This document shows positions 345-22,839 of a stretch of 23,144 nt of DNA, piece by piece. Position numbers and translations under genes: made by a program. Within the stretch, counting starts at the first letter, position 1, and the number at the start of each line of letters is the position of its first letter. A model generated the notes under the pieces. That model searched no databases. It was given only the letters and a program-made list of their open reading frames with translations, and had not been told where the DNA came from. The stretch comes from Gracilibacteraceae bacterium. Its GTDB lineage: Bacteria > Bacillota > Desulfitobacteriia > Desulfitobacteriales > Syntrophobotulaceae. Location: assembly GCA_031255985.1 (NCBI GenBank), contig JAIRRL010000198.1, forward strand, positions 1-23,144, given 5' to 3'.

Positions 345-532
345 AGCGCCTCTTTGGGGCAAAAGTCGATGCATTCGCCGCACATCACGCATTTTTCCCC
401 GTCGATTTCAGGCAGCGCAAATATATCTTTTTGCGTTATCGCCTCCTGCGGGCAAACCGCGATCGCGGGACATTTGTGATCTTGCGGACATTTATCCGGG
501 TTGACCGTCACCCGCCCGGCGGCGGCCGTCAT
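332..532 (-). CDS. 2x[4Fe-4S] ferredoxin
   Basis: 66 aa with two Cys clusters (CPQDHKCPAIAVCP and CVMCGECIDFCP), typical of clostridial-type ferredoxins. Its start overlaps the stop of the upstream trxB-like gene (ATGA). Confidence 0.8.
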   Translation of the reverse strand: MTAAAGRVTVNPDKCPQDHKCPAIAVCPQEAITQKDIFALPEIDGEKCVMCGECIDFCPKEALEQK

Positions 533-1752
533 CGGGTCATCCAGGCTCTGAGGGTCGATTCCAAGGTGTTGTAGCAGTCGGTACTCAGAGTGCCGCAGGC
601 GGTTTCCCGCTTCAAAAGGATAAACGTCCCCGGCGTTTGCACATTGTATTTGCGCGCCAGCATCTGCTTGCGGTACAAATCAATCTTCACCAGCTTGATT
701 TTGCCGGGGTATTCGGCGCTGATCTGTTCCGCCTTGGCGATGGCGTTGATGCTGAATTCGTTCATCGGACTCCAGAAAGCGAGCAATATCTGATCGCTGC
801 CGGCGACCATCGTCTTGTACTCTTCAAATTCTTCAATATAGTGGCCGGCGGCGTGGGCCGCCACCGCTCCGTCCGCCGCCGCCGTCACGACCTGGCGCAG
901 GTATTTTTGCCGGCAGTCGCCGGCGGCGTAGACGCCGGATACCGAAGTCTCCATTTTGTCGCCGGTGATGATGTAGCCGTTTTTGTCGGTCTCGACCAAA
1001 TCCCGGACGACGCCGGTCATCGGCAAGAGACCCACATACATGAAAACACCGTCCACCGCCGTTTCGGTCAGGGCGCCGGTTTTCAGATTTTTGACGACGA
1101 TGGAGCTTACGTCCTCATCGCCTTTGATCTCAGCCAGCGAAGAGTTCCAGACGAATTCCAGCCGGGGATGCTGAAAAGCGATTTCGGCGCTCACTTTATT
1201 GCAGTCCACAATCCCTTCGTCGTGGATCACAATCACGATCACCTTGGCGGCGAACTTGGCGATATAGACCGCCTCTTCCAGCGCCGCGTCGCCGTTGCCG
1301 ACGACGGCGACGACGCAATCAGTGAAGTTTTCCGCGTCGCAGGTGGCGCAGTAGGAAACCCCCATCCCCCTGAATTCCTTCTCGCCGGGGACGCCGAGCA
1401 GACGAGGCTCGGTGCCCAGCGCCAGCACGACGCTCTTAGCCTGGTATTCCGGGCCTTTTTTCAGGCGGATAGTCTTGGGATCGCCCTCCAGGCTCAGTTC
1501 CCGCACTTCGCCCCGCGTGAACTCCACGCCGAATTTTTCGGCGTGAGCGCGAAAATCGGCCATCAGGGCCGGGCCGGAGACATGGGCGTGAAAACCGGGA
1601 TAATTGGCGATTTCTCTGGTCGAGTAAGCGGCGCCGCCAACCGCGCCTTTTTCAATGATCAAAGTCTTCAAACGGGAACGGCCGCCGTAGACGCCGGCCG
1701 CCATTCCGGCGGCGCCGCCGCCTATAATTATGATATCATACAGATTATCCAC
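529..1752 (-). CDS. trxB: Thioredoxin reductase-family flavoprotein with a C-terminally fused thioredoxin-like domain that lacks CxxC
   Basis: FAD motif GGGAAG. Redox-active CATC (CATCDA). The second dinucleotide motif GNGDAALEEA is present, but the NADPH-specific HRRD is replaced by IHDEG. C-terminal ~100 aa align to the thioredoxin fold (ILLAFW-SPMN… versus FWAEWCGPCK) with both active-site Cys absent. GTG start preceded by a GGGGG RBS. Confidence 0.8.
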   Translation of the reverse strand: MDNLYDIIIIGGGAAGMAAGVYGGRSRLKTLIIEKGAVGGAAYSTREIANYPGFHAHVSGPALMADFRAHAEKFGVEFTRGEVRELSLEGDPKTIRLKKGPEYQAKSVVLALGTEPRLLGVPGEKEFRGMGVSYCATCDAENFTDCVVAVVGNGDAALEEAVYIAKFAAKVIVIVIHDEGIVDCNKVSAEIAFQHPRLEFVWNSSLAEIKGDEDVSSIVVKNLKTGALTETAVDGVFMYVGLLPMTGVVRDLVETDKNGYIITGDKMETSVSGVYAAGDCRQKYLRQVVTAAADGAVAAHAAGHYIEEFEEYKTMVAGSDQILLAFWSPMNEFSINAIAKAEQISAEYPGKIKLVKIDLYRKQMLARKYNVQTPGTFILLKRETACGTLSTDCYNTLESTLRAWMTR

Positions 1753-1764
1753 GTTTACCCCCGT

Positions 1765-2085
1765 TCAGCCTATGGCCGCTATTTTTTCGCGCACCTGCTC
1801 CTCCGTCACCGGTCCCGCCAGTTTGCCCTGATAGTCGCCGTCCTTGAAAAACATCAAAGAGGGCACTCCTTTCAGCGGGTAAGTCTTGTAAAGAGACGCC
1901 TGTTCCTCGACGTCGACATAGTAGAAAGCACATTCGGAAGCCAATTCCGGCGCCAGTTCCTCCAGCATCGGCACGACTTCGGCGCAGACGTGACAGTTTT
2001 GGCGGGAAAAAACAATCAGACATTTTCCCCGGCCTTCGATCACGTTCCGCTCGAAAGAATCGGCGTCCAGTTTGGTTATAGCCAT
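1765..2085 (-). CDS. trx: Thioredoxin-family protein with a CHVC active site
   Basis: 106 aa of thioredoxin-fold length, with …FSRQNCHVCAEVVP… at the canonical position and a cis-Pro region (GVPSLMFF). AAAGGAGG RBS 7 nt upstream. Confidence 0.75.
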   Translation of the reverse strand: MAITKLDADSFERNVIEGRGKCLIVFSRQNCHVCAEVVPMLEELAPELASECAFYYVDVEEQASLYKTYPLKGVPSLMFFKDGDYQGKLAGPVTEEQVREKIAAIG

Positions 2086-2148
2086 TTCGCCTGTCCTCCT
2101 TTGCTTGACTGTCCGCTTCTGTCGGACTGTAAAAATATGGTATCGGCC

Positions 2149-3747
2149 CTATTGCAGAAACTCCAGGTACGGCTGCTTCAGTTCGGCCATGGCGTTGACC
2201 ATAATCTCCACCAGACCGCCGTATTGCAGATTATACTGTTCCGTCGCCTTATAGACTTCGAAAATTTCGCGCAGCGTCCCTTTGCAATTGGAACAGGGAG
2301 CGCAGACATACTTGGGCAGACTTTGATCCGTCATTTCCAGGGTAAAGGCGTTCAAAATCTGGGCGAACTTCATGCGGCCGCTGACCTGGTTGCGAAAAGA
2401 GCTGAAGTTGGGCGAGTTCATGATGGCAAAACCCGAACCGCCGCCGCAACAGTAGTTGTCCACGCCATGGGGCGTCATTTCCCGGAAAGCAGGGCACAGG
2501 GCCTGAAGGATATCCCGCTGGGGTTTTACCACCCCCATCTGCCGCACCAAATTGCAAGGGTCGTGCAAGGTCACCGGGAACGGGTTTTTGGCCGGGTCAA
2601 ACCGAATCTGTTTTTTTGTCACCATCTCCGCCAAAAGAGGGAGGGAGCTTTCCACCGGCAGCCGTTCCTCCGCCCTGATCAAGCGGTCGGAGACAATGAG
2701 GGCCGCCTTATGGGCGTGACCGCATTCCCCCACGACGACGCGGCGGATACCCAAAGCCTTCATAGCTTCGATCTGTTTCAGGGCGATCTTTTTCGCCTGG
2801 ATGTCGTCGTACCAGATTCCGTAGTTTACGCTGTCATAAGTCATGACTTCGCTGGAAAGCGTCCAGTCAAGCCCGGCTTTGTTAAACAAAATAGCGTAAG
2901 CCGCCGGGTTTTCCGGCCAGGCGACGAACTCGCCCGCGTTGTGGTAGAGTAAAATATCGGCGCCTTTTTTGTCCACCGGTATTTTTATCGACTGACCGAT
3001 TCGCTCGCCTGTGTCGTCCTCCAAAAATTCCACCATATCCAAAAACGCCGCTTTGCCGATGCCGGTGGAAGAGCCAACTTTCAGTTGCAGCATACTGCCT
3101 TTGTCGTGCAGCGGCGTCGGGGCCAGGCCCATTTCTTGGCTGAAAATCTTGCGGATCTCCTTGGCAAAAAGGGAATTGTCCAAACCGAGGGGACATGCCT
3201 GAGCGCAGCGCCGGCACAGATTGCAGCGGTAAGCCAGTTCCCCCAGGCGGCCGATGGTTTCCCAGGTGGCGTCGATCTCGGAGGCGGAAAGCGCTCGCCG
3301 GAGGGCGCCCATCCCGCTGAAATGGCTGCGGTAAAGTTTGCGCAATACCTCGGCCCGGAAAATGGGGCGGTGGGGTTCCTGGCCGCCGGAAGCCTGGAAA
3401 ACATGGCAAGCCTCGGAGCAGGTATTACATTTGGCGCAGTATTCAAAGGACAGTTCCAGGGGTTGGCGCACGCCGTTGTTGGCGTCGGAAAAAAGCTTGC
3501 CCAGGCCCTGCAAAAATTTTTCCACGAAAGCTTTCTTTTCTTCGTCGCTCGCCGGCGGCCGCATAGTGTCAATGGCCACGCAGCCGTCCAAACTGGTGCA
3601 GTATTTTTCCCGCCATTCCGGCTTTATCTCGGCGAACTTGGGTTCCGGCCACTGATCATAAGGCGCGGGCAACGGCGGCAGAGAATCGTAGTTTATAAGC
3701 CGCTCCGTCCGGCGGCCTAAATCCTTGGGCGCTATAATCCCGCTCAT
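2149..3747 (-). CDS. HdrD/DsrK-like cytoplasmic iron-sulfur protein (two ferredoxin-type 4Fe-4S motifs plus a CCG domain)
   Basis: CAKCNTCSEACHV and CNLCRRCAQACP are Cx2Cx2Cx3CP motifs. The C-terminal CCG signature is HDPCNL…CPAF…NYCCGGGSG…CAPCSNC. No signal peptide. Start overlaps the upstream membrane-protein stop (ATGA). Confidence 0.75.
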   Translation of the reverse strand: MSGIIAPKDLGRRTERLINYDSLPPLPAPYDQWPEPKFAEIKPEWREKYCTSLDGCVAIDTMRPPASDEEKKAFVEKFLQGLGKLFSDANNGVRQPLELSFEYCAKCNTCSEACHVFQASGGQEPHRPIFRAEVLRKLYRSHFSGMGALRRALSASEIDATWETIGRLGELAYRCNLCRRCAQACPLGLDNSLFAKEIRKIFSQEMGLAPTPLHDKGSMLQLKVGSSTGIGKAAFLDMVEFLEDDTGERIGQSIKIPVDKKGADILLYHNAGEFVAWPENPAAYAILFNKAGLDWTLSSEVMTYDSVNYGIWYDDIQAKKIALKQIEAMKALGIRRVVVGECGHAHKAALIVSDRLIRAEERLPVESSLPLLAEMVTKKQIRFDPAKNPFPVTLHDPCNLVRQMGVVKPQRDILQALCPAFREMTPHGVDNYCCGGGSGFAIMNSPNFSSFRNQVSGRMKFAQILNAFTLEMTDQSLPKYVCAPCSNCKGTLREIFEVYKATEQYNLQYGGLVEIMVNAMAELKQPYLEFLQ

Positions 3748-4619
3748 GTTTTTTCTCCTTCCTGGCCGGCAGCCGGCGCCGGGTTAGCATGCGGCGCGCT
3801 CCAGACCGTCTGCGGTTTGTTTTTCAGCGCCCGGTCCACCTGAGCCGCCATGCCGGAATTTTTCAGATTGGCGGCGTTGTCCCACAAAAAACGGTGGTAA
3901 GCAAAAAACTTGCCGACATAATGGCTCATTTTGCCGATGGGTATATATATGAGCAGACCGTAGACCAAAAGCAGGTGTACAGCCGCCAAAACTCCGGGCG
4001 GCGTGTAGGAGAGAGTCAGAATGTTCCGCATGGCGAGGCGGGCCGAGTCGGAAAACAGGCCGTCGCCGAACCAGAGACATGCGCCGGTAAGAAACGCCGC
4101 AAACAAGAGGATCAGATTCAGATATTCCTGGGGGGTGGTATAGATGCGCAGACGTTTGTCCGCCAAACGGCGCGCGAGTAAAATCAGCGAGCCGGCGCCG
4201 CCCAGCAGAAAGCCCAAAAAACCGCAGAGCGCCGTCAAGACCCGCAGCGCTTCCACATTGCCGGCGCCGGTCAGGGCGGTCAGGATCAGGAGCAGCGTCC
4301 AGACAAACAGACAGTACATGCCGAAGTGAAAAGGCCAGGAAGCCAGCCAAAAACTGCGGCTGCCGTGAAAGAGACGCTTGATGAATACGATTTCCCCCCC
4401 CATTTCCGCCAGTTCCGCCATATGCGAAACTTGCCGGGGTTTAGTCCACCATTCCGGTTCCTCCAGATAGGAACCGCCGTGTTTCCGGCCTTTTTCCGCC
4501 GGCGCCGGATAAAGCTCCATGCGCCCGTGCAGCGGCAGCCGGTTTAACCGGTAGGCCCTGAGGGCCGAGAGAGCAAGGAAAAGCCCCGCCGCGACGTAGG
4601 CCCCTATCCCAAACAGCAT
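3744..4619 (-). CDS. NarI/DsrM/HdrE-like integral-membrane b-type cytochrome (putative quinol-interacting subunit)
   Basis: 291 aa with about 5 hydrophobic helices and conserved-looking His in the helices (LHGRM, FHGSRSF, WPFHFGMY, AAVHLLLVYG). GGGAGG RBS. Immediately upstream of, and overlapping, the HdrD-like gene, which is the classical HdrED/DsrMK arrangement. Family assignment rests on topology and context, not on a search. Confidence 0.55.
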   Translation of the reverse strand: MLFGIGAYVAAGLFLALSALRAYRLNRLPLHGRMELYPAPAEKGRKHGGSYLEEPEWWTKPRQVSHMAELAEMGGEIVFIKRLFHGSRSFWLASWPFHFGMYCLFVWTLLLILTALTGAGNVEALRVLTALCGFLGFLLGGAGSLILLARRLADKRLRIYTTPQEYLNLILLFAAFLTGACLWFGDGLFSDSARLAMRNILTLSYTPPGVLAAVHLLLVYGLLIYIPIGKMSHYVGKFFAYHRFLWDNAANLKNSGMAAQVDRALKNKPQTVWSAPHANPAPAAGQEGEKT

Positions 4620-6656: not shown

Positions 6657-7754
6657 TCAGGCACCCTTCAGGATCTTGGTCAGTTGCGTCAGGAGGTCTG
6701 CGCCGCCTGTGACGGAAATGCTCCCCACATTGTCGCAGATTTTCTCCAGATACTCCAGTTCTTTCAGTTTATATAGCGTCTGGTTTTCGTCCATCAGTTT
6801 GGCGGTGTTCAGGAGGCTTCTCGTGGAAGCGACTTCTTCTCGCCGGGTGATGACGTTCGCCTGCGCTTTCTTTTCCGCGATCAGGACTGTGTTCATAATG
6901 TTGCGTATTTCGCCGGGCAAGATTATATCTTTTACTCCCGCATCGGAGAAAGTTACGAAATACTCCGCTTCTTTTTCTTTCAGACGGGCGAGCATACTGG
7001 CCGCCATCTGCTCTTTGTTCTCCAGAATCTCATCGAGGCGGTATTTGCCGATGTACTCGCGCAGGGCAAGCTGCAGCAGGATATGAATCTGCTTTTCGTA
7101 GTCGTCGATCTCGGTGTGAATCTTCACATAGTCCGCGATTTTATAATTGCACACGAAATTAATGCGAAGCGCTACCTTGTCGAGGGTCAGCATTTCCTGC
7201 CCGGTAATGTCCAACTGTAAAGAACGGGTGTCAACAAACTCGACAGTCGCCTTTACGCCGCCAGTCCAGAAGTAGTAAGCGCCCGGTTCGAGCAGGCGGA
7301 CAAACTTCCCGTCGTAGCAGAGCCGAGCTTTTTGGAAGTCTGCCACTTCGACCTTGTTGTACAACGCTCTCGGAATATAAGAGAATAGGTACTTCGGCAC
7401 ATCTTCGCCAACTTCCGGCGCTTTTGTGCTTATGATTCTGAACTCGTGCTTATCGTGGATTTTGAAGAAAGCATACTTGCCGCTGACAAGCGTCCTGCAG
7501 TATTTGCCGTTCACAAAATGCAACACAAGCGTCTCATCGGCGACATCGACGACTTCGACTTCGCTCGCCAGTTCCGAATTTTTCAGAAAAACTTCGATGT
7601 CGAAGCCTTCAATTTTGAACTCTGAACCCGCATGTAATACTTCTACGCTGTAGCTGCGCCCAAGTCTGACGTGCTTGCCGGATTTCAGATATTCCACAAA
7701 TTTGCCGTTCTTAAAGAGAAGTCCTCTCTGATTTTCGTTGATAATCGTTTTCAT
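6657..7754 (-). CDS. SPFH/band-7 (slipin-like) family protein
   Basis: The N-terminus MKTIINENQRGLLFKNGKF… resembles slipin family starts. The C-terminal half has the SPFH-type coiled-coil signature (…TVLIAEKKAQANVITRREEVASTRSLLNTAKLMDEN…). GC content is lower than the surrounding genes. GGGAGG RBS. Confidence 0.6.
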   Translation of the reverse strand: MKTIINENQRGLLFKNGKFVEYLKSGKHVRLGRSYSVEVLHAGSEFKIEGFDIEVFLKNSELASEVEVVDVADETLVLHFVNGKYCRTLVSGKYAFFKIHDKHEFRIISTKAPEVGEDVPKYLFSYIPRALYNKVEVADFQKARLCYDGKFVRLLEPGAYYFWTGGVKATVEFVDTRSLQLDITGQEMLTLDKVALRINFVCNYKIADYVKIHTEIDDYEKQIHILLQLALREYIGKYRLDEILENKEQMAASMLARLKEKEAEYFVTFSDAGVKDIILPGEIRNIMNTVLIAEKKAQANVITRREEVASTRSLLNTAKLMDENQTLYKLKELEYLEKICDNVGSISVTGGADLLTQLTKILKGA

Positions 7755-8044
7755 CGCCGTTTCCTCCCATAAATTAGTGGCGTTTAAGCGGATTGCCCAT
7801 ACCGACTTTTGCGGCGGATAAATTAAGCATCACGCCGGCGGCCACGGAAGCTGCTGCTTTGATGGGCGCCGCGCCTATGCGGTATCCTCTCCCGACAGGG
7901 CAAAACCGGTATTGCGTTCCCGTCGCCCTCTAAGGGCAGCGGTTGGCCGGACAATCCACGACGCCGGTCAGATGATGTTCGAGTTTTTCACTCACCTTGA
8001 ACGTGCGGCTCTTTCGAGCCAGCTTGTCCACCACAGGCTGACAT

Positions 8045-8075
8045 CAGGTCAGGCGGGATTCGAACCCGCGTTAAG
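8045..8075 (-). other. Orphan tRNA/tmRNA-like 3' fragment (T-arm GCGGG-TTCGAAT-CCCGC plus 7-nt acceptor 3' strand CTGACCT and discriminator G), with no matching 5' half
   Basis: The minus strand reads …TTAACGCGGGTTCGAATCCCGCCTGACCTG. The T-loop is canonical, but no complementary AGGTCAG, D-arm or anticodon arm is found within 400 nt upstream. Confidence 0.5.
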
Positions 8076-8263
8076 GAGCAAGCATTCACTTGGCACACCG
8101 CGAGAGCATAGCTTCCGGCGCCGCGGGATATTCGCCTTGCCTTCTTTCCAAACGCGAATGTGAGGTTTCCGGCGTCATAGTCGCTGACATCCACGCAAAA
8201 GTGACCTTGCGTTGTCATTATACGAGGAGGGCAGATGAAAATCGTGGAAAAAAAGTTGCGAAC

Positions 8264-9220
8264 TCAATTTTCTGAGTCCGCCATCTTCCGGGAAACGGTT
8301 TGTTGCATCGAGATTCGATTCTTGATAAGGGAGATAAAACTGTCCGGGGCGGTCACTCTCAGCATGGGGCCGAAGGCGAGGATGCGGATTAGGATTTCCC
8401 TCTCGTCCCGCGCCTCATACCAAAGCGTTACATCATACATTCCGTTATCAAGCCGCCGCGTCTCCTTGCGGCAGTCGGAGAAGTGGAGCATGACCCGGTC
8501 GAGTGCGTTCCGTTCGTTTTTCAGCGTAAACCGGACGGCGGCGGCGCGGCGTTTCGGCGCAATGAGTTTTTCGGCGTCGTATTCCTCCAGCAGTTCACAG
8601 CTTTCAATTTGTTTGAGGTTAATATAGACCGTATAGCGTCCGCCCGCTGTTTCGAGCCGGAATCTATCGTCTTTCGCGGAATACTCCAGCCGGTAAGGGA
8701 TAATCCGCACGTGCATAAGGCGGTTGCGGCGGTTGCGATATTTTATATGCAGCCGCCGCTTGCCCTGCATTGCCGCCAGAATCGTCTTAAACCGGGCGAT
8801 ATATTCATCGTCAGTAAACGGATCGCCGTCCGTGTAACGGTCAAAGAAGACGAAATCACCGGGCGTGAACAGAGGCTCTATTTCGTCAAGCCCGCTCATT
8901 GAAACGCTGAAGAGACCTATGCGCGGGTCGAGTGATACTGCTTTCAGCCATCTTTTCTGCAAGGTAGTCAACGGCATTTTGGGAATGTTCTTTATCGGCG
9001 TCTGGAAATTCTTATCCAAAACTGCCCACTCGCCGTTTTTCAAGGCTGGCAATATAGAGAGAACGCTCTCCGAAAACGCCCGCTCGCGGATAATCTCGTT
9101 AATCCGATTAACCGACAGCTTGCCGTCCAATGCTTCCGTTATTACCGCTGCCACGGCGTTGAAATATGCGGAGTAGACCTCGCTAAACAGCATTGCCGCC
9201 ACCCCCGTACATCGCGGCAA
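8264..9220 (-). CDS. WYL-domain transcriptional regulator (PafC-like second member of a pair)
   Basis: Central WYL-like segment (…RRLHIKYRNRRNRLMHVRIIPYRLEYSAKDDRFRLETA…). C-terminal WCX-like segment (…YDVTLWYEARDEREILIRILAFGPMLRVTAPDSFISLIKNRI). Confidence 0.55.
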   Translation of the reverse strand: MPRCTGVAAMLFSEVYSAYFNAVAAVITEALDGKLSVNRINEIIRERAFSESVLSILPALKNGEWAVLDKNFQTPIKNIPKMPLTTLQKRWLKAVSLDPRIGLFSVSMSGLDEIEPLFTPGDFVFFDRYTDGDPFTDDEYIARFKTILAAMQGKRRLHIKYRNRRNRLMHVRIIPYRLEYSAKDDRFRLETAGGRYTVYINLKQIESCELLEEYDAEKLIAPKRRAAAVRFTLKNERNALDRVMLHFSDCRKETRRLDNGMYDVTLWYEARDEREILIRILAFGPMLRVTAPDSFISLIKNRISMQQTVSRKMADSEN

Positions 9221-10424
9221 ATGCGGCGTAATCCGTCCAGAATTGCTGCTCGACCTTTTTATTGGAGCAGGTCAAAGACGATATGCGCCCGATGAAAGTC
9301 CTTAGCCACGGCATCAGTTCCCAAGCGTCATACACATCGGCGGTAAACGTCCACTCGTTCTCAGAAGTTTGCGTAACTTCCCCGCAGCGTTTTTCCCGCT
9401 CCAGACGGCGGATAATATGTATGTCTTTTGGGTCAATCGCGAGTATCATCTCCAAATGTTCGAGCCGGCACTGCCCGCAGGCGACGCCCCAAATGCGCGG
9501 CTGCTCTGTTTTGAGTGTTTCCTGGAGCGCCTCGTATTCAGCCTCGGTTTCCAGAGGCTTAACCTTAACGATAGCATCCAGGCGGAAAAAAACTATTTTC
9601 TTTTTCCATGCGCTGTATGCCGCTATGTACTGCCTGCCGCCCTGAGCGCTGATATAGATTTTCAGCGGAACTATAACGGCTTGCCTTCTGCCGCCGTGAC
9701 GGCCGGCGGCCAGTTCAAGCGCAACCTTTTGGCGCGCGCGAATAGCGGCGAGCAGATCCAAAAGGATGCCGTTATCCAAAGCGAACAGCAGGTACCTGTG
9801 TTTGAACGAGAACACGGTTGGTTTCGGCGCGCGATATTTGTCAAGGATAAAACTGCCGACCACGCCGAGCGGGTTACACTCGGAAAAAAACTCCGCTGCG
9901 TTTTGCCACGAATCCAAGTCCACGGTATCTGCGGCCAGCGAGTATAGATACTGCTTGCCGCTTTTGCCGGTCGTGAGCAATCCTGCGTCTGTGTACTCTT
10001 TCAGCTTTTTTCGCAGGGTCGATTCGTCTATCGGATCCGGGCAATCGAATGACGACAGATATTTCTCATCGATAGTTGCGAGCAACTCCATAAGGCTTCG
10101 AGGCTTGCCGTCAGCCAAAATATCAAGCAGGATAAAGTGGAGGTTGATGTCGTTTTTGGTAAAACTCGCGGCTTTCCACGCTCTGTACAGCGGATTGCGA
10201 GGTATATGGCGGCTGTCCACAGATAGAAAAACCGCCTTGCCGCCGGCGTCCTGCCGAAACGACATAAAGTCGCCGAGCCAGCTTTCAAGACGGCGTTTTT
10301 CGTTGTCATAGCTGCGCGGACTCTTTGTGCCGACCTCATCCCGACTCTTGAAGCCATATACAAAAAACTCCCGCATATAAACGCGAATACGCGACATGTT
10401 TTTGATTAGCTCTCTGTATGCCAT
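9183..10424 (-). CDS. HTH + WYL + WCX domain transcriptional regulator (PafB-like)
   Basis: Winged-helix region (GKPRSLMELLATIDEKY…). WYL core (…QYIAAYSAWKKKIVFFRLDAIVKVKPLE). WCX-like C-terminus (…WTFTADVYDAWELMPWLRTFIGRI). Overlaps the downstream WYL gene by 38 nt. Confidence 0.6.
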   Translation of the reverse strand: MAYRELIKNMSRIRVYMREFFVYGFKSRDEVGTKSPRSYDNEKRRLESWLGDFMSFRQDAGGKAVFLSVDSRHIPRNPLYRAWKAASFTKNDINLHFILLDILADGKPRSLMELLATIDEKYLSSFDCPDPIDESTLRKKLKEYTDAGLLTTGKSGKQYLYSLAADTVDLDSWQNAAEFFSECNPLGVVGSFILDKYRAPKPTVFSFKHRYLLFALDNGILLDLLAAIRARQKVALELAAGRHGGRRQAVIVPLKIYISAQGGRQYIAAYSAWKKKIVFFRLDAIVKVKPLETEAEYEALQETLKTEQPRIWGVACGQCRLEHLEMILAIDPKDIHIIRRLEREKRCGEVTQTSENEWTFTADVYDAWELMPWLRTFIGRISSLTCSNKKVEQQFWTDYAAFAAMYGGGGNAV

Positions 10425-10645
10425 TTCCTCACTGCCTTTGTCACAGTGAATTGCTCACGGTCTATTCGCCAATGAGCGGCTGCGTGACGGAACCGTCCAT
10501 CAAGCGGCAGATGTTCGCCATGTCAATTTTCGGACGCTTCTCTTAATAAACCGTAATCGCGCCTCCCGCGAAATGATGTTCTCAGTGTAACACACAAGGT
10601 CGCGCAAGGCAACGATGTTAGCGCCGGGGAGACGGCGCTGGGTGT

Positions 10646-10984
10646 TCAATAAAAATCATTGTCCTGCATTTTTTCAAGCCACAGTTCTCGCAAGGTTTTA
10701 AGGTCGCCTGTGAACTCCGGATCCGTTTGCGCTTCCCCTTTTTCGAGTTCTTCCAAAACCTCAAAAACAAACGGCGGGTTATCAGACCATTCGTCAAGCA
10801 ATTTATGATGATAACACGCGCCTGTTTTTTTCATGAAGTCAAAGCGATTGCGGCTGCCTTGCATGTCGCCCGTACTGTCAAGCAACCTTTTCCCGTTATT
10901 TGTATTGCGTATCGCAAACACCCCGCCGATTACTTTTCGTTCTCGATATGCGGATAAAAGCTCTTTTCTCGTTTTTGATTTCAT
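10646..10984 (-). CDS. Small GIY-YIG-like domain protein with substituted catalytic tyrosines (probably a degenerate nuclease fold)
   Basis: …GGVFAIRNTNNGKRLLDSTGDMQGSRNRFDF…HHKLLDEW…FVFEVLEE…LRELWLEKM follows the spacing of the GIY-(x10)-YIG…R…H…E…N pattern, but with GVF and LLD in place of GIY and YIG. Confidence 0.4.
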   Translation of the reverse strand: MKSKTRKELLSAYRERKVIGGVFAIRNTNNGKRLLDSTGDMQGSRNRFDFMKKTGACYHHKLLDEWSDNPPFVFEVLEELEKGEAQTDPEFTGDLKTLRELWLEKMQDNDFY

Positions 10985-11243
10985 AAGTTCCTCATTTCTT
11001 CATTTCTTCGCAACGAGCCGCGGCGCATTGTCCTCCGGCAGGGATCCGGGGCAGAGACCGCGGCGGTTCTGGCGCAGCCAAACCGTCAGAGTGGATTTTA
11101 CGCTTTGAAAAAGCGGGAGGAAACGTCACCGGCAGTCGCTGCGAGCCCGCAGTTCCAGCGCCAAAATGATTATACAGCAAACAAACAACGAGAACAACTG
11201 AAGAATTATCTTCGGGCGTCGTCTTCGGCGTCCCGGCGTCCTC

Positions 11244-11272
11244 TTGACAAGCGGGGTGAAAATATCTACAAT
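11244..11272 (+). promoter_or_regulatory. Perfect consensus sigma-70 promoter TTGACA-17-TACAAT ending 6 nt before the ATG at 11279 (leaderless or near-leaderless transcript)
   Basis: Read directly: cTTGACAagcggggtgaaaatatcTACAATgagtcgATGaat. There is no Shine-Dalgarno between the -10 and the ATG. Confidence 0.55.
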
Positions 11273-11278
11273 GAGTCG

Positions 11279-13474
11279 ATGAATAAAAATAAAATCGCCG
11301 TTTACGGCAAAGGCGGCATAGGCAAATCCACAGTCAGCGCCAATTTAGCCGCGGCGCTGGCGGAAACCGGCGTCCGGGTTCTGCAGATCGGCTGCGACCC
11401 CAAGCGCGATTCTACGCGCCTGCTCACGGGCGGGCGGCGGATCACGACGGTTTTGGATTATACGCGGGTTACGGGCCATGCGGAGCGCCGGATAGAGGAC
11501 GTGCTGTTCAGGGGGCGCCTGGGCGTGGGCTGTGTGGAAGCGGGCGGCCCGAAACCGGGAGTGGGCTGCGCGGGGCGGGGGATTATCTCCGCTTTTGAGC
11601 TGCTTGAACGCTTCGGGGCCGAAGCCGATTACGACGCCGTTATTTACGACGTGCTGGGCGACGTGGTCTGCGGCGGTTTTGCCGTGCCCATCAGGCGGGA
11701 ATACGCGAACATGATCTATATCGTCACTTCCGGCGAATTCATGGCTCTGTACGCGGCTAACAACATCCTGAGCGGAATCCGCAATTATGACGGCGATAAG
11801 CGGCGCGTGGCCGGCCTTATTTTCAACCGGCGCGGCTTGGAAGGGGAGGACGGGCGCGTCGCCCGTTTTGCCGCGGCCGTCCGGCTGCCGGTTTGCGCCG
11901 CCATACCCAGGAGCGGCGCTTTTGCCCGCTGCGAGGCGGAAAACAAAACGCTGCTTGAGGCTGGCTATGCACCGGCTGGGATTTTCAGGAAGCTGGCACG
12001 GGCGATTAACGCCGGCGTCAGCCTGTATGAAGCTCTGCCCCTGACGGAGGAAGAACTGGAAGGCGCCGTTCTGGGCCTGAGCGCCCCGCCCACCGCCGCC
12101 GGGATCCTCGCCGCTGACGCGGCCGAAACGGACAAGACCCGTTCGCCGGGGCGGAAGGACGATCCCGGCGGCGAAATGCTGTCTCTGAACATATTAAACG
12201 ACGATCCGCTCCACGGCTGCGCTTTCAACGGCGCCGTCACGATGGGCGTCCACCTGACGGACGCGGTGGTTCTCGCCCACTCGCCCCGGAGCTGCGCCTA
12301 TATTTCCTATCAGACGATCAGTTCTTCCGGCCGGCGCGGCCTGTTTGAGCGCGGACTCCTTTTGCCAAACTCCGTCTCGCCCAATCTGGAGTGCAGCTTC
12401 ATGAACGAAAACGATATGATTTTTGGCGGCTTGGACAAACTGGAGGCGAAAGTTCTGGAGCTGAAAAAGAAAAAGCCCAAGGCGATCATCGTCGTCAGCT
12501 CCTGCCCCTCCGGCATCATCGGGGACGACGTCAGCCGCGTTCTCCGCCACGCCGACGCCGGTACGCCTGTCATCGCCGTCAAAACCGACGGCAATCTCAC
12601 CGGCGATTATTTGCAGGGTATGCTGAACCTCTATACCGCTCTCGCCCGCGGCGTCATAGAGCGGAACGTCGAAGCGATCCCTGACGCGGTCAATATCGTC
12701 TTTGAAAAAGTGGTCGCCAAAAACACCGGCGCGAATTTCAGCGTTATCGAAGGTTTTTTGCGCCGTCTCGGCCTGAAAGTGAACTGCCGCTTCCTATGCG
12801 AAACGACTTTTGACCGGCTGCGGAATTTCCTGGCCGCCCCCCTCAATCTGCTGGCAAGTAATGACTATACAGGGAGATTGCTCCAAAAATTCTTTACGGC
12901 TGAATATGGCTGCGTATTTTTGCAGGACGGCTTCCCCGTAGGTTTTGACGAGACGAAAACCTGGCTGTTTCGGGTCGCGGATTTTTTTGGCCGGCGCGCG
13001 GCGGCGGCGGATTTGCTCCGGGAACACGAAGCCGGCTACCGGCGGCGGATGGAAGCTTTGCGGCCGGCTTTGCAAGGGCGCAAGCTGATGATCGTCACCT
13101 ACAACCACAATGTCGATTGGATATTGAAAGCCGCTATGGACGCGGGGATGGAAATCGTGAAACTCGGCATACTGAAATTTTCCCAGGACGCCGGTTTCGT
13201 GACCAAACTGGGCACAGGGCTGAACGTCGAGGAAAATTACGACGGGAACAAGCGGGAGGCCGACATGCGGCAATACGGCCCGGACGTGTTGCTGACCAAC
13301 TACAATTCCACGGACGAACCGGCGTCCGTCCTGACGGACACGATTCCCATGTGTCCCGACGTCGGTTTTTACTCCGGCCTGAACATGGTCAGCCGCTGGG
13401 CGGCGCTGCTGGAAAATAATTTGCGCGGGGAGTGGATGGACGATAAACGGCTCTTTGACAAATATTACGCCTGA
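11279..13474 (+). CDS. Nitrogenase-like fusion protein: NifH/BchL-type Fe-protein ATPase domain joined through a Pro/Ala-rich linker to a NifD/NifE-type component-1 domain
   Basis: The N-terminus MNKNKIAVYGKGGIGKST is a P-loop, with switch I/II regions present. The [4Fe-4S] ligand Cys are conserved (CVEAGGPKPGVGCAGRGI; DVLGDVVCGGFAVP). A linker of about 35 aa (PPTAAGILAADAAETDKTRSPGRKDDPGG) follows. The C-terminal domain carries NifD/E-type cluster motifs (HGCAFNGA; SPRSCAYIS; VSSCPSGIIGDD). The ORF track extends 58 codons upstream to a TTG at 11105, but that extension lies upstream of the consensus promoter and has no RBS, so the ATG at 11279 is preferred. Confidence 0.8.
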   Translation: MNKNKIAVYGKGGIGKSTVSANLAAALAETGVRVLQIGCDPKRDSTRLLTGGRRITTVLDYTRVTGHAERRIEDVLFRGRLGVGCVEAGGPKPGVGCAGRGIISAFELLERFGAEADYDAVIYDVLGDVVCGGFAVPIRREYANMIYIVTSGEFMALYAANNILSGIRNYDGDKRRVAGLIFNRRGLEGEDGRVARFAAAVRLPVCAAIPRSGAFARCEAENKTLLEAGYAPAGIFRKLARAINAGVSLYEALPLTEEELEGAVLGLSAPPTAAGILAADAAETDKTRSPGRKDDPGGEMLSLNILNDDPLHGCAFNGAVTMGVHLTDAVVLAHSPRSCAYISYQTISSSGRRGLFERGLLLPNSVSPNLECSFMNENDMIFGGLDKLEAKVLELKKKKPKAIIVVSSCPSGIIGDDVSRVLRHADAGTPVIAVKTDGNLTGDYLQGMLNLYTALARGVIERNVEAIPDAVNIVFEKVVAKNTGANFSVIEGFLRRLGLKVNCRFLCETTFDRLRNFLAAPLNLLASNDYTGRLLQKFFTAEYGCVFLQDGFPVGFDETKTWLFRVADFFGRRAAAADLLREHEAGYRRRMEALRPALQGRKLMIVTYNHNVDWILKAAMDAGMEIVKLGILKFSQDAGFVTKLGTGLNVEENYDGNKREADMRQYGPDVLLTNYNSTDEPASVLTDTIPMCPDVGFYSGLNMVSRWAALLENNLRGEWMDDKRLFDKYYA

Positions 13475-14732
13475 CAGCCTTTCGGGGATCATTTTCGCTC
13501 TGGAGGGCGTCGCGCGGGCGACGGTGCTGCTCAACGGCCCCACCGGCTGCAAATTTTACCACAGCGCCGTCTCCGACAGTCAGACGCTGGGGCGGGGCGG
13601 GCTGGATCCGCTGCTCTTTCCTGATTTATGGCATTTCGGTCAGCCCCGCGTACCCTGCACATACCTGGGCGGCCGCGATTATGTATACGGCAGCCGGGAA
13701 AAACTGGCAGCGGCGCTGCCCTGCCTGAGCCGCCAGGCGGATACCGATCTGCTCTGCGTCGTAAATTCGCCCGGCGCCGCGCTCATCGGCGACGACTTGC
13801 GCGCCGCCGCCGAAGCCGCCCTGCCGGACGCCCCCTGCGTCACGATAGAAACGCCGGGCTTTTCGGAAAATATTTTCGCCGGTTACGACAGCGCCGCCCA
13901 GGCGCTTATCCGCCAGCTCGACTGCCCAGCCCAAGCCCTGCGGCCCGCGACGGTCAATCTGCTGGGTCTGTCCGTATTCCAGCGGAACTACCGGGGCGAT
14001 CTGGCCGAGATGAAGCGGCTGCTGGCCCTTTGCGGCGTGGAGATGATCTGCGCTCTTTTCGCCGGAAGCGGTCTGAGCGAGATTCGGGCCATGCCGGCGG
14101 CGGCCCTGAACATCGTACTTCAGCCTGAATACGGTCTGGCGGCGGCCCGTCTGCTGGAAGAAAAATACGGAACGCCCTATATCGTCCGCGACGGCCCTCC
14201 TGTCGGCTTTGCGGCGACGGAGGAATTGATGAGCGCCGTCTGCGCCAGGCTCGGAGGCGACGCCGCCGCTTTCCGGGAAGAAAGCGAGCGGGCCAGGGCG
14301 CGCGCCTACAGTCATATTGCCCGTGTTCACGCTCTCAGCGGCTTGCCCAAGGGAGCGAAATTCGGTCTGGAAGGAACATATTCCGAGCTTTACGCTTACA
14401 CCAAATTTCTCACGGGCTATTTCGGCATGATCCCGGAAAGCGTCTCGGTTTTTTGCCCGGAGCGCAGCGAATACAAGGCCAAGTACACCGCCCTCCTTGA
14501 CGGGCTGGGGGCCGCCGCCGTGTTGAACCGCGGCTTGTTTGAGGCGGAAGCGGAGCTGATTTTCGCCAGCGGCGGTTCCATCGCGGCTCTGAAATTGCGC
14601 AAACGCGAATTCGTCGGCGTGGAAATCGCGCTGCCGACCTTGGGCTATATCGACGTGCTGCCCAAAGCGAATTACGGCGTCAACGGCGCTCTGCGCCTGA
14701 CGGAACAGGTGTTGAACGGCCTGCTGTTCTAG
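13455..14732 (+). CDS. Nitrogenase component-1 type oxidoreductase (NifK/NifN/BchB-like partner subunit)
   Basis: …LLNGPTGCKFYHSAVSDSQ… and …LLCVVNSPGAALIGDDL… match the GC…/…xIGDD motifs of NifK/N-like subunits. TTG start overlaps the upstream gene by 20 nt, suggesting translational coupling. Confidence 0.7.
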   Translation: MTNITPDSLSGIIFALEGVARATVLLNGPTGCKFYHSAVSDSQTLGRGGLDPLLFPDLWHFGQPRVPCTYLGGRDYVYGSREKLAAALPCLSRQADTDLLCVVNSPGAALIGDDLRAAAEAALPDAPCVTIETPGFSENIFAGYDSAAQALIRQLDCPAQALRPATVNLLGLSVFQRNYRGDLAEMKRLLALCGVEMICALFAGSGLSEIRAMPAAALNIVLQPEYGLAAARLLEEKYGTPYIVRDGPPVGFAATEELMSAVCARLGGDAAAFREESERARARAYSHIARVHALSGLPKGAKFGLEGTYSELYAYTKFLTGYFGMIPESVSVFCPERSEYKAKYTALLDGLGAAAVLNRGLFEAEAELIFASGGSIAALKLRKREFVGVEIALPTLGYIDVLPKANYGVNGALRLTEQVLNGLLF

Positions 14733-14734
14733 CC

Positions 14735-16489
14735 TCAGTTTTCCGCCCACATATCCGCCGACAGGCAGTACAGGCGGTAATAAACGCCGCGGCGCGCCAT
14801 CAGTTCGTCATGGCTGCCCTGTTCTTCAATGCCGTTTTCCGTTAAAACCAGAATAATTCTGGCGTTGCGAATCGTCGTCAGCCGGTGGGCAATAGTAAAG
14901 GTTGTGCGTCCTTTGGCAAGTTTTTCCAGCGACGACTGTACCTGGCGCTCGCTTTCGTTGTCCAAAGAAGATGTAGCCTCGTCCAGAATGAGGATAGGCG
15001 GATTTTTCAAAAAAGCGCGCGCGATGCTGACGCGCTGCTTCTGCCCGCCGGAAAGGCGCACCCCTCTTTCTCCCACATAAGTGTCGTATCCCTGGGGCAA
15101 AGCGGCGATAAACTCGTGCGCCCCGGCCTGTTCCGCGGCCGCGCGCACTTCCGCCGGCGAGGCTCCCGGTTTGCCGTAAGCGATATTTTCCGCCACAGTG
15201 CCGGAAAACAGGTAAATATCCTGCTGCACCACCCCTATATGCGAGCGCAAGGAGTGCAGCGTGTAGGAGCGAATATCCTCCCCGTCCAGCCGAATAGCGC
15301 CGGCGCTGACGTCATAAAAACGCGGAATAAGGCTGCACAGCGTCGTTTTGCCGCTGCCGGAGGAACCAACCAGAGCTACGTTTTCACCGGGCGCCACATG
15401 CAGATTGATATTCGAGAGGACATCCCGCTCGTTTTCGTTATAGTGAAAACTCACCTCGTCAAAATCCACCGCGCCGCGCACCTGAGTGAGGGCGACCGCG
15501 CCGGGCGCGTCTTTAATATCAGGTTCGGCGTCCATTATTTCGATGAAACGTTCCACGCCCGTCATCCCGCGCTGAAACTGTTCGGTGAATTCCACTATCC
15601 GCCGGATTGTCGCCAGCAAAGTCGTCACATACAGAAGATAAGCCACCAGATCCGCCGGTTCGATGCGACCGCCAATCATGAACAGAGCGCCGGCCACCAC
15701 CACAGCCAAATACATCAGGCCGTCAAAAGCGCGGGTCATCGTCTGGAAGCCCGCCATATAGCGGTATTGCTCCCGTTTGATATTCAGAAATTCCTCGTTG
15801 CCTTCCTCGAACTTTTCTTCTTCCAAGTGTTCGTTGGCAAAGGCTTTGACGACGCGAACCCCCAGCAGGCTGTCCTCGACGCGGGCGTTGATTTCCCCGA
15901 TCTGATTGCGCGATTTTTTGAAAGCGCGGCGCATCCGGCGGTTGAAATATAAAGCGCCGATGAACATGAAGGGCAAGGTGAGGAAGATGATCAGCGTCAG
16001 AGTCAAGTCCATCGTGGACAGAATGGCAAAGGCGGCCGTCAGTTTCAGGACGGCGATAAAAAATTCTTCCGGACAGTGGTGAGAAAATTCGGTCACGTCA
16101 AAGAGATCGCTGGTCACTCTGGCCATAATCTGACCGATTTTCATATTGTCAAAAAAAGAATAGTTCATCCGCTGCAAATGGGTGAACAAATCGCGGCGCA
16201 TGTCCGTCTCTATTCGCGCCCCCATGACATGGCCGATATTGGCCATATAATAATTGGCAAAAGCGTCAATTACGCGCAGAACCAGGTACAGCCCGCCCAG
16301 AGTGAATATGGAGCGCGCCGTCAGCGCGGCCAGATTGCGCATGCCCGTGTCGGTAATATACCGGACGATCAGGGGAAGCGCCAGTTCGCATACTGTCGTC
16401 AGGGCGGCGCAAAAAAGATCCATCGCCAGAACGGCGCGGTATTTTTTATAGTACGGCAAAAAACGCCGCAATAAACCCATCGTTTTCAA
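14735..16489 (-). CDS. ABC transporter, fused permease/ATPase exporter (MsbA/lipid or multidrug-exporter type)
   Basis: Six-TM N-terminal half. Walker A GSSGSGKTT. ABC signature LSGGQKQRVSIARA. Walker B ILILDEATSSLD. H-loop AHRL. TTG start. Confidence 0.85.
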   Translation of the reverse strand: MKTMGLLRRFLPYYKKYRAVLAMDLFCAALTTVCELALPLIVRYITDTGMRNLAALTARSIFTLGGLYLVLRVIDAFANYYMANIGHVMGARIETDMRRDLFTHLQRMNYSFFDNMKIGQIMARVTSDLFDVTEFSHHCPEEFFIAVLKLTAAFAILSTMDLTLTLIIFLTLPFMFIGALYFNRRMRRAFKKSRNQIGEINARVEDSLLGVRVVKAFANEHLEEEKFEEGNEEFLNIKREQYRYMAGFQTMTRAFDGLMYLAVVVAGALFMIGGRIEPADLVAYLLYVTTLLATIRRIVEFTEQFQRGMTGVERFIEIMDAEPDIKDAPGAVALTQVRGAVDFDEVSFHYNENERDVLSNINLHVAPGENVALVGSSGSGKTTLCSLIPRFYDVSAGAIRLDGEDIRSYTLHSLRSHIGVVQQDIYLFSGTVAENIAYGKPGASPAEVRAAAEQAGAHEFIAALPQGYDTYVGERGVRLSGGQKQRVSIARAFLKNPPILILDEATSSLDNESERQVQSSLEKLAKGRTTFTIAHRLTTIRNARIILVLTENGIEEQGSHDELMARRGVYYRLYCLSADMWAEN

Positions 16490-22748: not shown

Positions 22749-22839
22749 TGGCGGAGAAGGGGAGATTCGAACTCCCGCAGCGGTCACCCGCTCTAACGGT
22801 TTAGCAAACCGCCCTCTTCAGCCGCTTGAGTACTTCTCC
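22749..22839 (-). tRNA. tRNA-Ser (anticodon GCU) with encoded CCA
   Basis: Minus strand: GGAGAAG-TA-CTCAAGCGGCTGAAGAG-GGCGGT-TTGCTAA-ACCGT-TAGAGCGGGTGACCGCTGCG-GGAGTTCGAATCTCC-CTTCTCC-G-CCA. 7-bp acceptor, long variable arm, canonical T-loop. Confidence 0.85.

Follow-up and report, generated by a model that had tools for sequence, protein, structure and literature searches.

Nitrogenase-type catalysis is thought to need repeated association of the Fe protein with its catalytic partner and repeated dissociation from it. What does such a system do when the two are made as one polypeptide? The question is raised by a locus on contig JAIRRL010000198.1 (GenBank assembly GCA_031255985.1) of Gracilibacteraceae bacterium, analyzed here as a single stretch of 23,144 nucleotides (the window). 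One gene of the window encodes a NifH-type Fe protein domain (H) followed by a NifD/E-type domain (D), and the gene after it encodes a partner of the NifK/N type (K). Together, H-D and K are a two-gene nitrogenase-like (NFL) reductase with the Fe protein covalently fused to the D/E-type subunit. We place at about 0.5 the probability that this HD-K pair is an ATP-driven [4Fe-4S] reductase of an imported or late-stage corrinoid, a reading drawn from its relatives and not from the window itself. The cobalamin link of the fused clade is newly found here, the fusion as such having been glimpsed before.

An Fe protein and a D-type subunit in one polypeptide

The features that define the module are given below, with coordinates on the window. 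Conservation was counted over 60 non-redundant full-length H-D members of the family and 55 K sequences, and the D-domain ligands were aligned with NifD of Frankia and Desulfosporosinus, one MarD-like sequence and one CfbD-like sequence.

11279..13474, + strand: fused H-D gene, ATG at 11279, TGA at 13472-13474, 731 amino acids plus stop (open reading frame (ORF) scan and translation)
11291..12061, + strand: H domain, residues 5-261 (Pfam Fer4_NifH, PF00142, E 5e-87)
Residues 10-17, + strand: H-domain P-loop GKGGIGKS, invariant (60/60)
11567-11569, + strand: Cys97, H-domain [4Fe-4S] ligand, invariant (60/60)
11669-11671, + strand: Cys131, H-domain [4Fe-4S] ligand, invariant (60/60)
12062..12217, + strand: Pro/Ala/Gly-rich linker, residues 262-313 (about 50)
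12218..13471, + strand: D domain, residues 314-731 (Pfam Oxidored_nitro, PF00148, over residues 314-711, E 1.5e-70)
12218-12220, + strand: Cys314 (HGCAF), D ligand, aligned with NifD Cys62 (60/60)
12293-12295, + strand: Cys339 (SCAY), D ligand, aligned with NifD Cys88 (60/60)
12503-12505, + strand: Cys409 (SSCPSGIIGDD), D ligand, aligned with NifD Cys154 (60/60)
12785-12787, + strand: Cys503, family-specific, conserved in 58/60
12857-12859, + strand: Ser527, at the NifD Cys275 position
13352-13354, + strand: Cys692, family-specific, conserved in 42/60, situated in the loop where NifD has His442
13455..14732, + strand: K partner gene, NifK/N/BchB-type, 425 amino acids, TTG start, TAG stop (Oxidored_nitro, E 7e-50)
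13548-13550, + strand: K Cys32, aligned with NifK Cys70 (55/55)
13656-13658, + strand: K Cys68, aligned with NifK Cys95 (Cys in 41/55)

The locus holds both marks of the nitrogenase superfamily, a NifH-type domain with its ligands and a D/E/N subunit with an adjacent K/N/B partner. The H domain is 46-47% identical to Azotobacter vinelandii NifH and superimposes on it with a TM of 0.88 against the target. Its switch I (D40/D44) and switch II (D124/D128) aspartates and Arg100 are likewise invariant in all 60 members, and it keeps all the residues needed to bind and hydrolyze MgATP, to transduce the signal and to hold the subunit-bridging [4Fe-4S] cluster. AlphaFold2, supplied with a 46-sequence alignment, folded both domains of H-D confidently (overall pLDDT 82, pTM 0.69) and modelled residues 269-297 as disordered, with pLDDT below 50. 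The linker is an indel region of the family alignment, where proteins of about 731 residues spread over 850 columns, and its length differs among homologues.

The original prediction, made from the letters of the window alone, had described a self-contained two-gene system with an Fe protein fused to a D/E subunit and followed by a K/N partner. This core stands, on Pfam and on the ligands: in the hidden Markov model (HMM) check against PF00142 and PF00148 that it proposed, both domains and K match, including the C-terminal half whose failure to match PF00148 had been named as a way to overturn it. The three cysteine motifs that it listed are all found at the aligned NifD positions, and the K gene start does overlap the H-D stop by 20 nt. 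Other details shift. The fusion has 731 residues instead of 732, the start given as 11244 falls on the -35 hexamer of a promoter-like site with the reading frame itself beginning at the ATG at 11279, and the Pro/Ala linker keeps its composition but measures about 50 residues instead of some 35.

Cluster ligands and relation to known nitrogenase-like systems

Four cysteines are invariant across D and K, three from D and one from K. Position 527 is Y, S, H, N or F across the family and never a conserved Cys, and the alpha-His442 loop is shortened and without His. The FeMo-cofactor ligands Cys275 and His442, which had seemed absent on first inspection, are thus indeed missing, the window having Ser527 and no aligned His. 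In K, Pro106 occupies the position of NifK Cys153 and is Pro in 54/55 sequences. Because there are four invariant cysteines and no cofactor ligands, the D-K core probably carries, judging from sequence, one [4Fe-4S] cluster between its subunits, as in NifEN and DPOR, and not a P-cluster together with a carbide cluster.

H-D and K fall short of the cut-off of every NCBIfam model. The H domain scores 298.8 bits against CfbC (cut-off 402), 293.9 against nifH (394) and 198 against BchL (345). The D domain scores best against NifE (115 bits); nifD gives 83 (cut-off 654) and BchN 55 (cut-off 420), and the CfbD model TIGR03282 gives 44 bits over residues 373-462 only. The best model for K is BchB, at 91 bits (cut-off 490). 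Among solved structures, the closest chains by sequence are MarD for D (E 1.1e-22) and MarK for K (9d9u_C, E 5.6e-29, with BchB next), from the methylthio-alkane reductase (MAR) structures 9fmg and 9d9u. The top 50 Foldseek matches of the H-D model all fall on the H domain and give no ranking for the D domain.

A true nitrogenase (Nif/Vnf/Anf) was rejected: Cys275 and His442 are not there, beta-153 is Pro in 54/55, beta-95 is Cys in only 41/55, and the nifH and nifD scores stay below their cut-offs. No nifB/E/N cofactor-assembly genes lie within the 23-kb window.

DPOR (BchL/ChlL with BchN-BchB) and COR (BchX with BchY-BchZ), which make up Group V, share with H-D/K an ATP-dependent NifH-type reductase and a heteromeric D/K core with one inter-subunit [4Fe-4S] cluster, for which the N/D subunit supplies three cysteines at positions conserved in H-D. 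They have no FeMo-cofactor, and their substrate is a tetrapyrrole. The fourth cluster ligand is an Asp of BchB in DPOR and probably Cys32 of K here. Unlike H-D, both enzymes keep the reductase on a separate polypeptide; the BchL, BchN and BchB scores in the window are far under the cut-offs, and the window has no photosynthesis genes.

CfbCD (Group IV-B), the Ni-sirohydrochlorin a,c-diamide reductive cyclase of F430 biosynthesis, is also [4Fe-4S]-based with a tetrapyrrole substrate, and CfbC is the best family match of the H domain. According to a 2026 Chem Rev review of NFL enzymes, which asks if every nitrogenase-like system has to dissociate, CfbC stays in a persistent complex with CfbD, a functional analogue of the covalent H-D tether. 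CfbD is homomeric and has no K partner, whereas H-D has one. CfbCD differs further in that its cut-offs are missed by H-D, in its F430 context as against the cobalamin context of the family, and in its hosts, those of H-D being mostly non-methanogens and that of the window a Gracilibacteraceae bacterium.

MarHDK (Group IV-C), which supplies the closest solved D and K chains, shares the three-component logic of the module. On this resemblance HD-K could be a reductase of sulfur compounds or other small molecules, like MAR or isethionate reductase, its association with B12 being incidental. MAR, however, holds P-like and L-like (carbide) clusters, uses Cys270 and His429 of MarD as ligands of the L-like cluster and needs MarB or NifB. 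In H-D a non-Cys residue aligns with MarD Cys270, only 4/6 P-cluster cysteine positions are invariant, and neither a MarB homologue or radical-SAM NifB-like gene nor sulfur-metabolism genes were found in the window or in the surveyed relatives. MarH is moreover a separate protein, and MarD-like sequences fall in a different clade. We regard a MAR-like function as very improbable.

NifEN raises a different possibility. It holds its [4Fe-4S] cluster by three cysteines of E and one of N, the pattern seen in D and K, and no NCBIfam model matches the D domain better than NifE; HD-K might then be a cofactor scaffold or maturase, a NifEN/NifH-like platform that couples metal import to metallocluster assembly for another enzyme. 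Such a coupling of metal transport to cofactor assembly was proposed by Dos Santos et al. (2012; BMC Genomics 13:162, PMC3464626), who noted the co-location of NFL genes with ABC transporters, without a B12 signal. The D domain speaks against this role in lacking the Cys275 equivalent that NifE keeps for L-cluster binding. So do the loci: the window module has no nif context, neither a NifB/radical-SAM partner nor a recipient enzyme is conserved in the vicinity, the module stands by itself between variable flanks, and FecCD-type importers carry chelates, not free metal ions. A scaffold role is in our view quite improbable. Natural NifE-N fusions exist (PDB 9i0g), and join E to N, not H to E.

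Distribution and origin of the fusion

The H-D protein of the window is identical to a database entry (P0001) of a Gracilibacteraceae metagenome-assembled genome. The best 120 database matches to the window protein are all full-length fusions, at 54-79% identity, from sources that include Sporobacter termitidis, Aminipila, Thermincola, Casaltella, Emergencia and Erysipelotrichales, and the H-D architecture is common to more than 120 clusters at 90% identity. Among the best 150 of the 50%-identity representatives, out of a search set of 1.84 billion, 88 are H-D, 1 is H-H-D and 7 are H-H tandems; a few full-length D-only members of the fused family were also found in this set. Family loci were retrieved with an alignment of the D domain only, and loci from an earlier generic NifH-pattern scan served as controls. 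The fetched DNA contained 101 modules, 77 of them non-redundant at 90% identity, and 91 are clearly fused. The ten scored as D-only mostly end at a contig edge, and three that lie inside contigs look fragmented. A K gene follows directly in 85/101 modules, most of the others being short contigs that end before the K position. The fusion spans Clostridia, Methanomassiliicoccales, Methanosarcina (sp. KYL-1) and Myxococcota.

An artefact by frameshift or assembly, which had been set as a point that would undo the prediction, was rejected: there is no frameshift, 91 fused reading frames occur across independently assembled loci, and the fusion recurs in hundreds of database clusters.

A rarer form of the protein carries two H domains:

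P0122: H-H-D variant, 1081 amino acids
L014, 2627-5884: H-H-D variant in a Myxococcota metagenome-assembled genome (MAG), assigned by size and domain positions

H-H-D is a covalent Fe-protein 'dimer', with two H per D instead of one. Tandem NifH-domain variants were also seen in P0139, P0162, P0164, P0181, P0188 and P0205, some of them H-H-D and some H-H alone.

A D-domain family HMM ranks every fused D above every unfused D, except for one fragment at a contig end. In a neighbour-joining tree of 82 D-type sequences, built from the fetched loci without curated Group IV-VI reference sequences and without support values, all fused D domains form one clade, be they bacterial, archaeal or of the myxobacterial H-H-D form. 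The H-D fusion may thus have arisen once, as far as sequence can tell. An unfused group linked to transporters lies outside the clade, as do the NifD/E, Vnf/Anf-like, MarD-like and CfbD-like sequences; with midpoint rooting the clade adjoins the CfbD-like sequences. One Peptococcaceae locus (L008) holds a second, unfused NFL set of two Oxidored_nitro genes and a free NifH at 7492-10828, about 1 kb downstream of its fused HD-K pair.

The fusion has been glimpsed before, yet neither analyzed, named nor characterized. Dos Santos et al. (2012; PMC3464626) mentioned a fused nifH-nifE-like gene with a nifN-like gene in one sentence ('data not shown') and then filtered such fusions from their phylogeny, giving no function, ligand analysis or context; the window genes, with the same architecture and from the same taxa, belong to it. 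Borrel et al. (2014; PMC4153887) used a 'fused nifH/nifE' of Ca. Methanomassiliicoccus intestinalis as a genomic landmark only, and the words 'fused' and 'fusion' are absent from the 2026 review. The original prediction had set the fusion against characterized systems, in which the reductase is a separate polypeptide. The present sighting of the fusion is not the first, and it is common, not rare; the family has neither a name nor a known function, which would have overturned the prediction.

Cobalamin riboswitches and corrinoid genes in relatives

We scored cobalamin riboswitches as Rfam RF00174 above the gathering score, and counted enrichment with one detection method (nhmmer) in both sets. 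There are 18 in the 0.86 Mb of the 77 non-redundant family loci and 2 in the 1.13 Mb of 67 other NifH loci, an enrichment of about 12-fold. By locus, 13/77 family members carry one, compared to 2/67 controls (Fisher p=0.006). Rfam on eight nhmmer-negative family loci found no further riboswitch. Both control matches (L043 and L069) are unfused NFL operons mixed with importer genes, so the link of NFLs to B12 and importers reaches beyond the fused clade. In L043 (Clostridium argentinense CDC 2741, 9683-15462) the order is cobalamin riboswitch, NifH, D, K, Peripla_BP_2, FecCD, with the riboswitch directly upstream of the nifH-like gene; in L069 (9998-16201) it is NifH, binding protein, FecCD, ABC_tran (ABC ATPase), D, K.

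The arrangements of the riboswitches in the fused family are as follows.

L008: promoter-like site, then aptamer 2647-2880, terminator hairpin 2942-2965 with T-run, HD start 3046
L135 and L124: operon of riboswitch, Peripla_BP_2 (BtuF-like), FecCD (BtuC-like), HD, K, CobQ-like, PP-loop ATPase, CbiB, CobD-like
L100, L103, L108, L116 and L159: riboswitch on the strand opposite to HD, 108-205 nt upstream of it, with divergent genes under its control
L001, L142 and L154: riboswitch 33-451 nt downstream of K
L005, 10646-10871, - strand: riboswitch (79 bits), antisense, inside the 835-nt gap between HD (8001-10205, +) and K (11040-12335, +)

In L008, L124, L135 and the unfused L043, the NFL genes lie behind a riboswitch on their own strand or in one operon with cob/btu genes; the window shows neither. 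The operon genes of L135 and L124 are on one strand, with overlapping stops and starts. Their CobQ-like protein, of 272 residues, is homologous to cobyric acid synthase in its N-terminal half (299.5 bits, cut-off 273), CbiB scores 249 bits (cut-off 166), and the CobD-like protein, at 272.8 bits, is below its cut-off of 290.6. The gene order in L135 is also the order of a pathway, running from import through HD-K and amidation to aminopropanol-phosphate attachment. The half-size CobQ, which has no glutamine amidotransferase domain, is always followed by a PP-loop ATPase like diphthine-ammonia ligase (L135 8595-10069, also L124, L127 and L132); the two may be an ammonia-dependent corrinoid amidation pair.

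Importer genes recur elsewhere. In the archaeal locus L018, from a Methanomassiliicoccaceae MAG, an ABC ATPase gene precedes HD and K, and two FecCD genes follow. In Sporobacter termitidis, a RACo_C_ter gene lies directly upstream of the module, and the module flanks vary from genome to genome. The riboswitch in the HD-K gap of L005 points into a 92-residue reading frame and the 3' end of HD, where riboswitch-controlled antisense transcription may occur, and a second riboswitch of L005 drives cbiK-like and btuFCD-like genes. SseB-like proteins (PF07179 / PF14581) are encoded directly 3' of a cobalamin riboswitch and beside K in L001 (14061-14666, +) and L089 (8842-9561, -). The genes driven by riboswitches divergent from HD in L108 (1646-4645, -) and L100 (2-3946, -, and 4084-4689, -) encode large surface proteins with NEAT-like and FIVAR domains and a cysteine-rich PF04071 'zf-like' protein; these may serve Gram-positive corrinoid capture.

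Corrinoid reduction weighed against its alternatives

Cobalamin riboswitches classically repress B12-independent isozymes. HD-K could on this ground be an enzyme that replaces a B12-dependent one at low cobamide, with a riboswitch link like that of metE or nrdD. A neighbouring riboswitch in L089, which drives an NrdD gene, fits this, as does the fact that most family loci, the window included, are without cob or btu genes. The operons of L135 and L124 do not, since HD-K lies there between an importer and the CobQ-like, CbiB and CobD genes, an atypical place for isozymes. Coupling to FecCD/Peripla_BP_2 also recurs in archaeal, myxobacterial and unfused clostridial NFLs, and no candidate B12-dependent counterpart reaction is evident. 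We consider a B12-independent isozyme unlikely.

The imported substrate could also be another metal chelate or tetrapyrrole, such as haem, a sirohydrochlorin-type compound, a Ni/Co tetrapyrrole or a siderophore, with HD-K catalyzing, for example, reductive metal release or the synthesis of a tetrapyrrole cofactor by CfbCD-like ring reduction. The H domain scores highest against CfbC (298.8 bits, compared to 293.9 for nifH), the fused clade lies beside CfbD-like sequences in the midpoint-rooted tree, and tetrapyrrole rings are what all characterized NFLs of the [4Fe-4S] type reduce (2026 review). Importers of the FecCD/Peripla_BP_2 kind serve haem, siderophores and B12 alike, and a NEAT-like surface protein adjoins the module in L108. 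Set against this, the cobalamin riboswitch is the only ligand-specific signal found, the flanking biosynthetic genes (CbiB, CobD, CobQ-like) are cobamide-specific, and the surroundings of the module showed no genes for haem, sirohaem or F430. The CfbC and CfbD cut-offs are all missed, and a K partner is present, unlike in CfbCD. We hold a non-corrinoid chelate or tetrapyrrole to be a minor possibility, to be taken more seriously than the other alternatives.

Several observations weigh against a corrinoid substrate. Within about 6 kb, 64/77 non-redundant family loci have no riboswitch, and the window has neither a cobalamin riboswitch nor corrinoid or transporter genes. The full BtuFC-HD-K-CobQ-CbiB-CobD operon occurs only in one termite-gut metagenome subclade (L124, L127, L128, L132 and L135). 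Several riboswitches control a neighbour gene (surface protein, SseB-like, NrdD) and not HD-K, so part of the signal may reflect 'B12 islands' instead of direct regulation. FecCD/Peripla_BP_2 importers also carry haem and siderophores, and the D-domain tree is without bootstrap values. There is also a precedent for caution: the NflD-CbiA homologue context that was read as 'cobalamin reduction' in 2012 later proved to belong to F430 (Dos Santos 2012; 2026 review).

A literature search with 'nitrogenase-like' and 'cobalamin riboswitch' found no paper, subscription-only papers being outside the search.

A proposed mechanism for HD-K as a tethered corrinoid reductase

In HD-K, two H domains would dimerize around one [4Fe-4S] cluster, and the H2 dimer would dock at the D-K interface, where ATP hydrolysis would send low-potential electrons, one by one, to the inter-subunit [4Fe-4S] cluster. 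That cluster would in turn reduce a substrate, organic or organometallic, bound in the cavity of D/K, much as happens in DPOR, COR or CfbCD. The flexible tether of about 50 residues would keep the donor H at its acceptor D throughout. Within cobamide salvage or late biosynthesis, the candidate reactions are reduction of Co(II) to Co(I) before adenosylation and reduction of the macrocycle. The L135 gene order is as compatible with the one as with the other, and for the step from Co(II) to Co(I) we know of no dedicated enzyme in anaerobes. RACo, an ATP-dependent reductive activator of corrinoid/Fe-S proteins, and CobR, a corrin reductase, belong to the reaction class Co(II) to Co(I). They are analogous in function only, in that corrinoid reduction is driven by ATP or flavin; their folds are unrelated to HD-K, and we claim no homology.

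The tether bears on stoichiometry. NifH-type reductases work as homodimers, with one cluster held between the subunits by Cys97 and Cys132 of each. With one H per D, each (DK)2 would therefore be served by a single H2 dimer, which is half the ratio at which nitrogenase is saturated. The 1:1 ratio of H to D that had been predicted holds for monomers; in an (HD)2K2 assembly, two catalytic halves would share one reductase dimer. The H-H-D variants would, from their domain order, restore two H per D.

More tentatively, and with odds we put well below even, HD-K would be the first nitrogenase-like enzyme of B12 metabolism, a tethered ATP-driven reductase of imported or nascent corrinoids in anaerobes whose donor turns over without full dissociation; it could, for instance, be the missing dedicated corrin reductase that takes Co(II) to Co(I) before adenosylation.

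Expression and surroundings of the window locus

The region upstream of the H-D gene holds one further feature.

11244..11272, + strand: promoter-like site TTGACA-17-TACAAT (consensus scan, 11/12 matches), -35 hexamer starting at 11244

Its 3' end is 6 nt from the H-D ATG, and no Shine-Dalgarno sequence was found upstream of this ATG. Together, these suggest a leaderless transcript, and the H-D mRNA may be leaderless or near-leaderless. The same spacing leaves no space for a 5' regulatory RNA or riboswitch, and an Rfam scan of window positions 10300-15000 gave nothing at E<=5. In L001, a relative 77% identical to the window protein, H-D starts with GTG and the upstream region is unrelated to that of the window; no conservation was found between the two, and their 112-residue upstream reading frames are unrelated.

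The genes that flank the module in the window, for a WYL regulator, an ABC exporter, an H+-pyrophosphatase and a transketolase, carry no functional signal. The original prediction had found no nifB/E/N/V, tetrapyrrole or F430 genes nearby; none occurs in the 23-kb window, whereas the modules of relatives adjoin cobalamin riboswitches and corrinoid genes. Three other features were noted.

9183-10424, - strand: WYL-domain protein, divergent and upstream of the module, which could be a regulator
529-4619, - strand: redox gene cluster, a DsrMK/HmeCD-like module
22752-22839, - strand: tRNA gene, near the window end

Encoded in the redox cluster are a flavoprotein that resembles thioredoxin reductase and ends in a thioredoxin domain, a Fer4/CCG protein similar to HdrD, and a membrane protein akin to the gamma subunit of nitrate reductase.

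Implications

The 2026 review names the assignment of functions to orphan NFL clades as the main challenge of the field, gene context having been of little help so far. The association with cobalamin riboswitches and btu/cob genes gives one large orphan clade, which includes Clostridia of the gut and of termites as well as methanogenic archaea, a concrete and testable substrate class. The natural H-D tether and its H-H-D variant are a ready test case for obligatory dissociation and a compact design for engineering. HD-K may fill a gap in anaerobic cobamide salvage and, if corrinoid reduction is its role, would show that a nitrogenase-type donor can turn over without fully leaving its acceptor.

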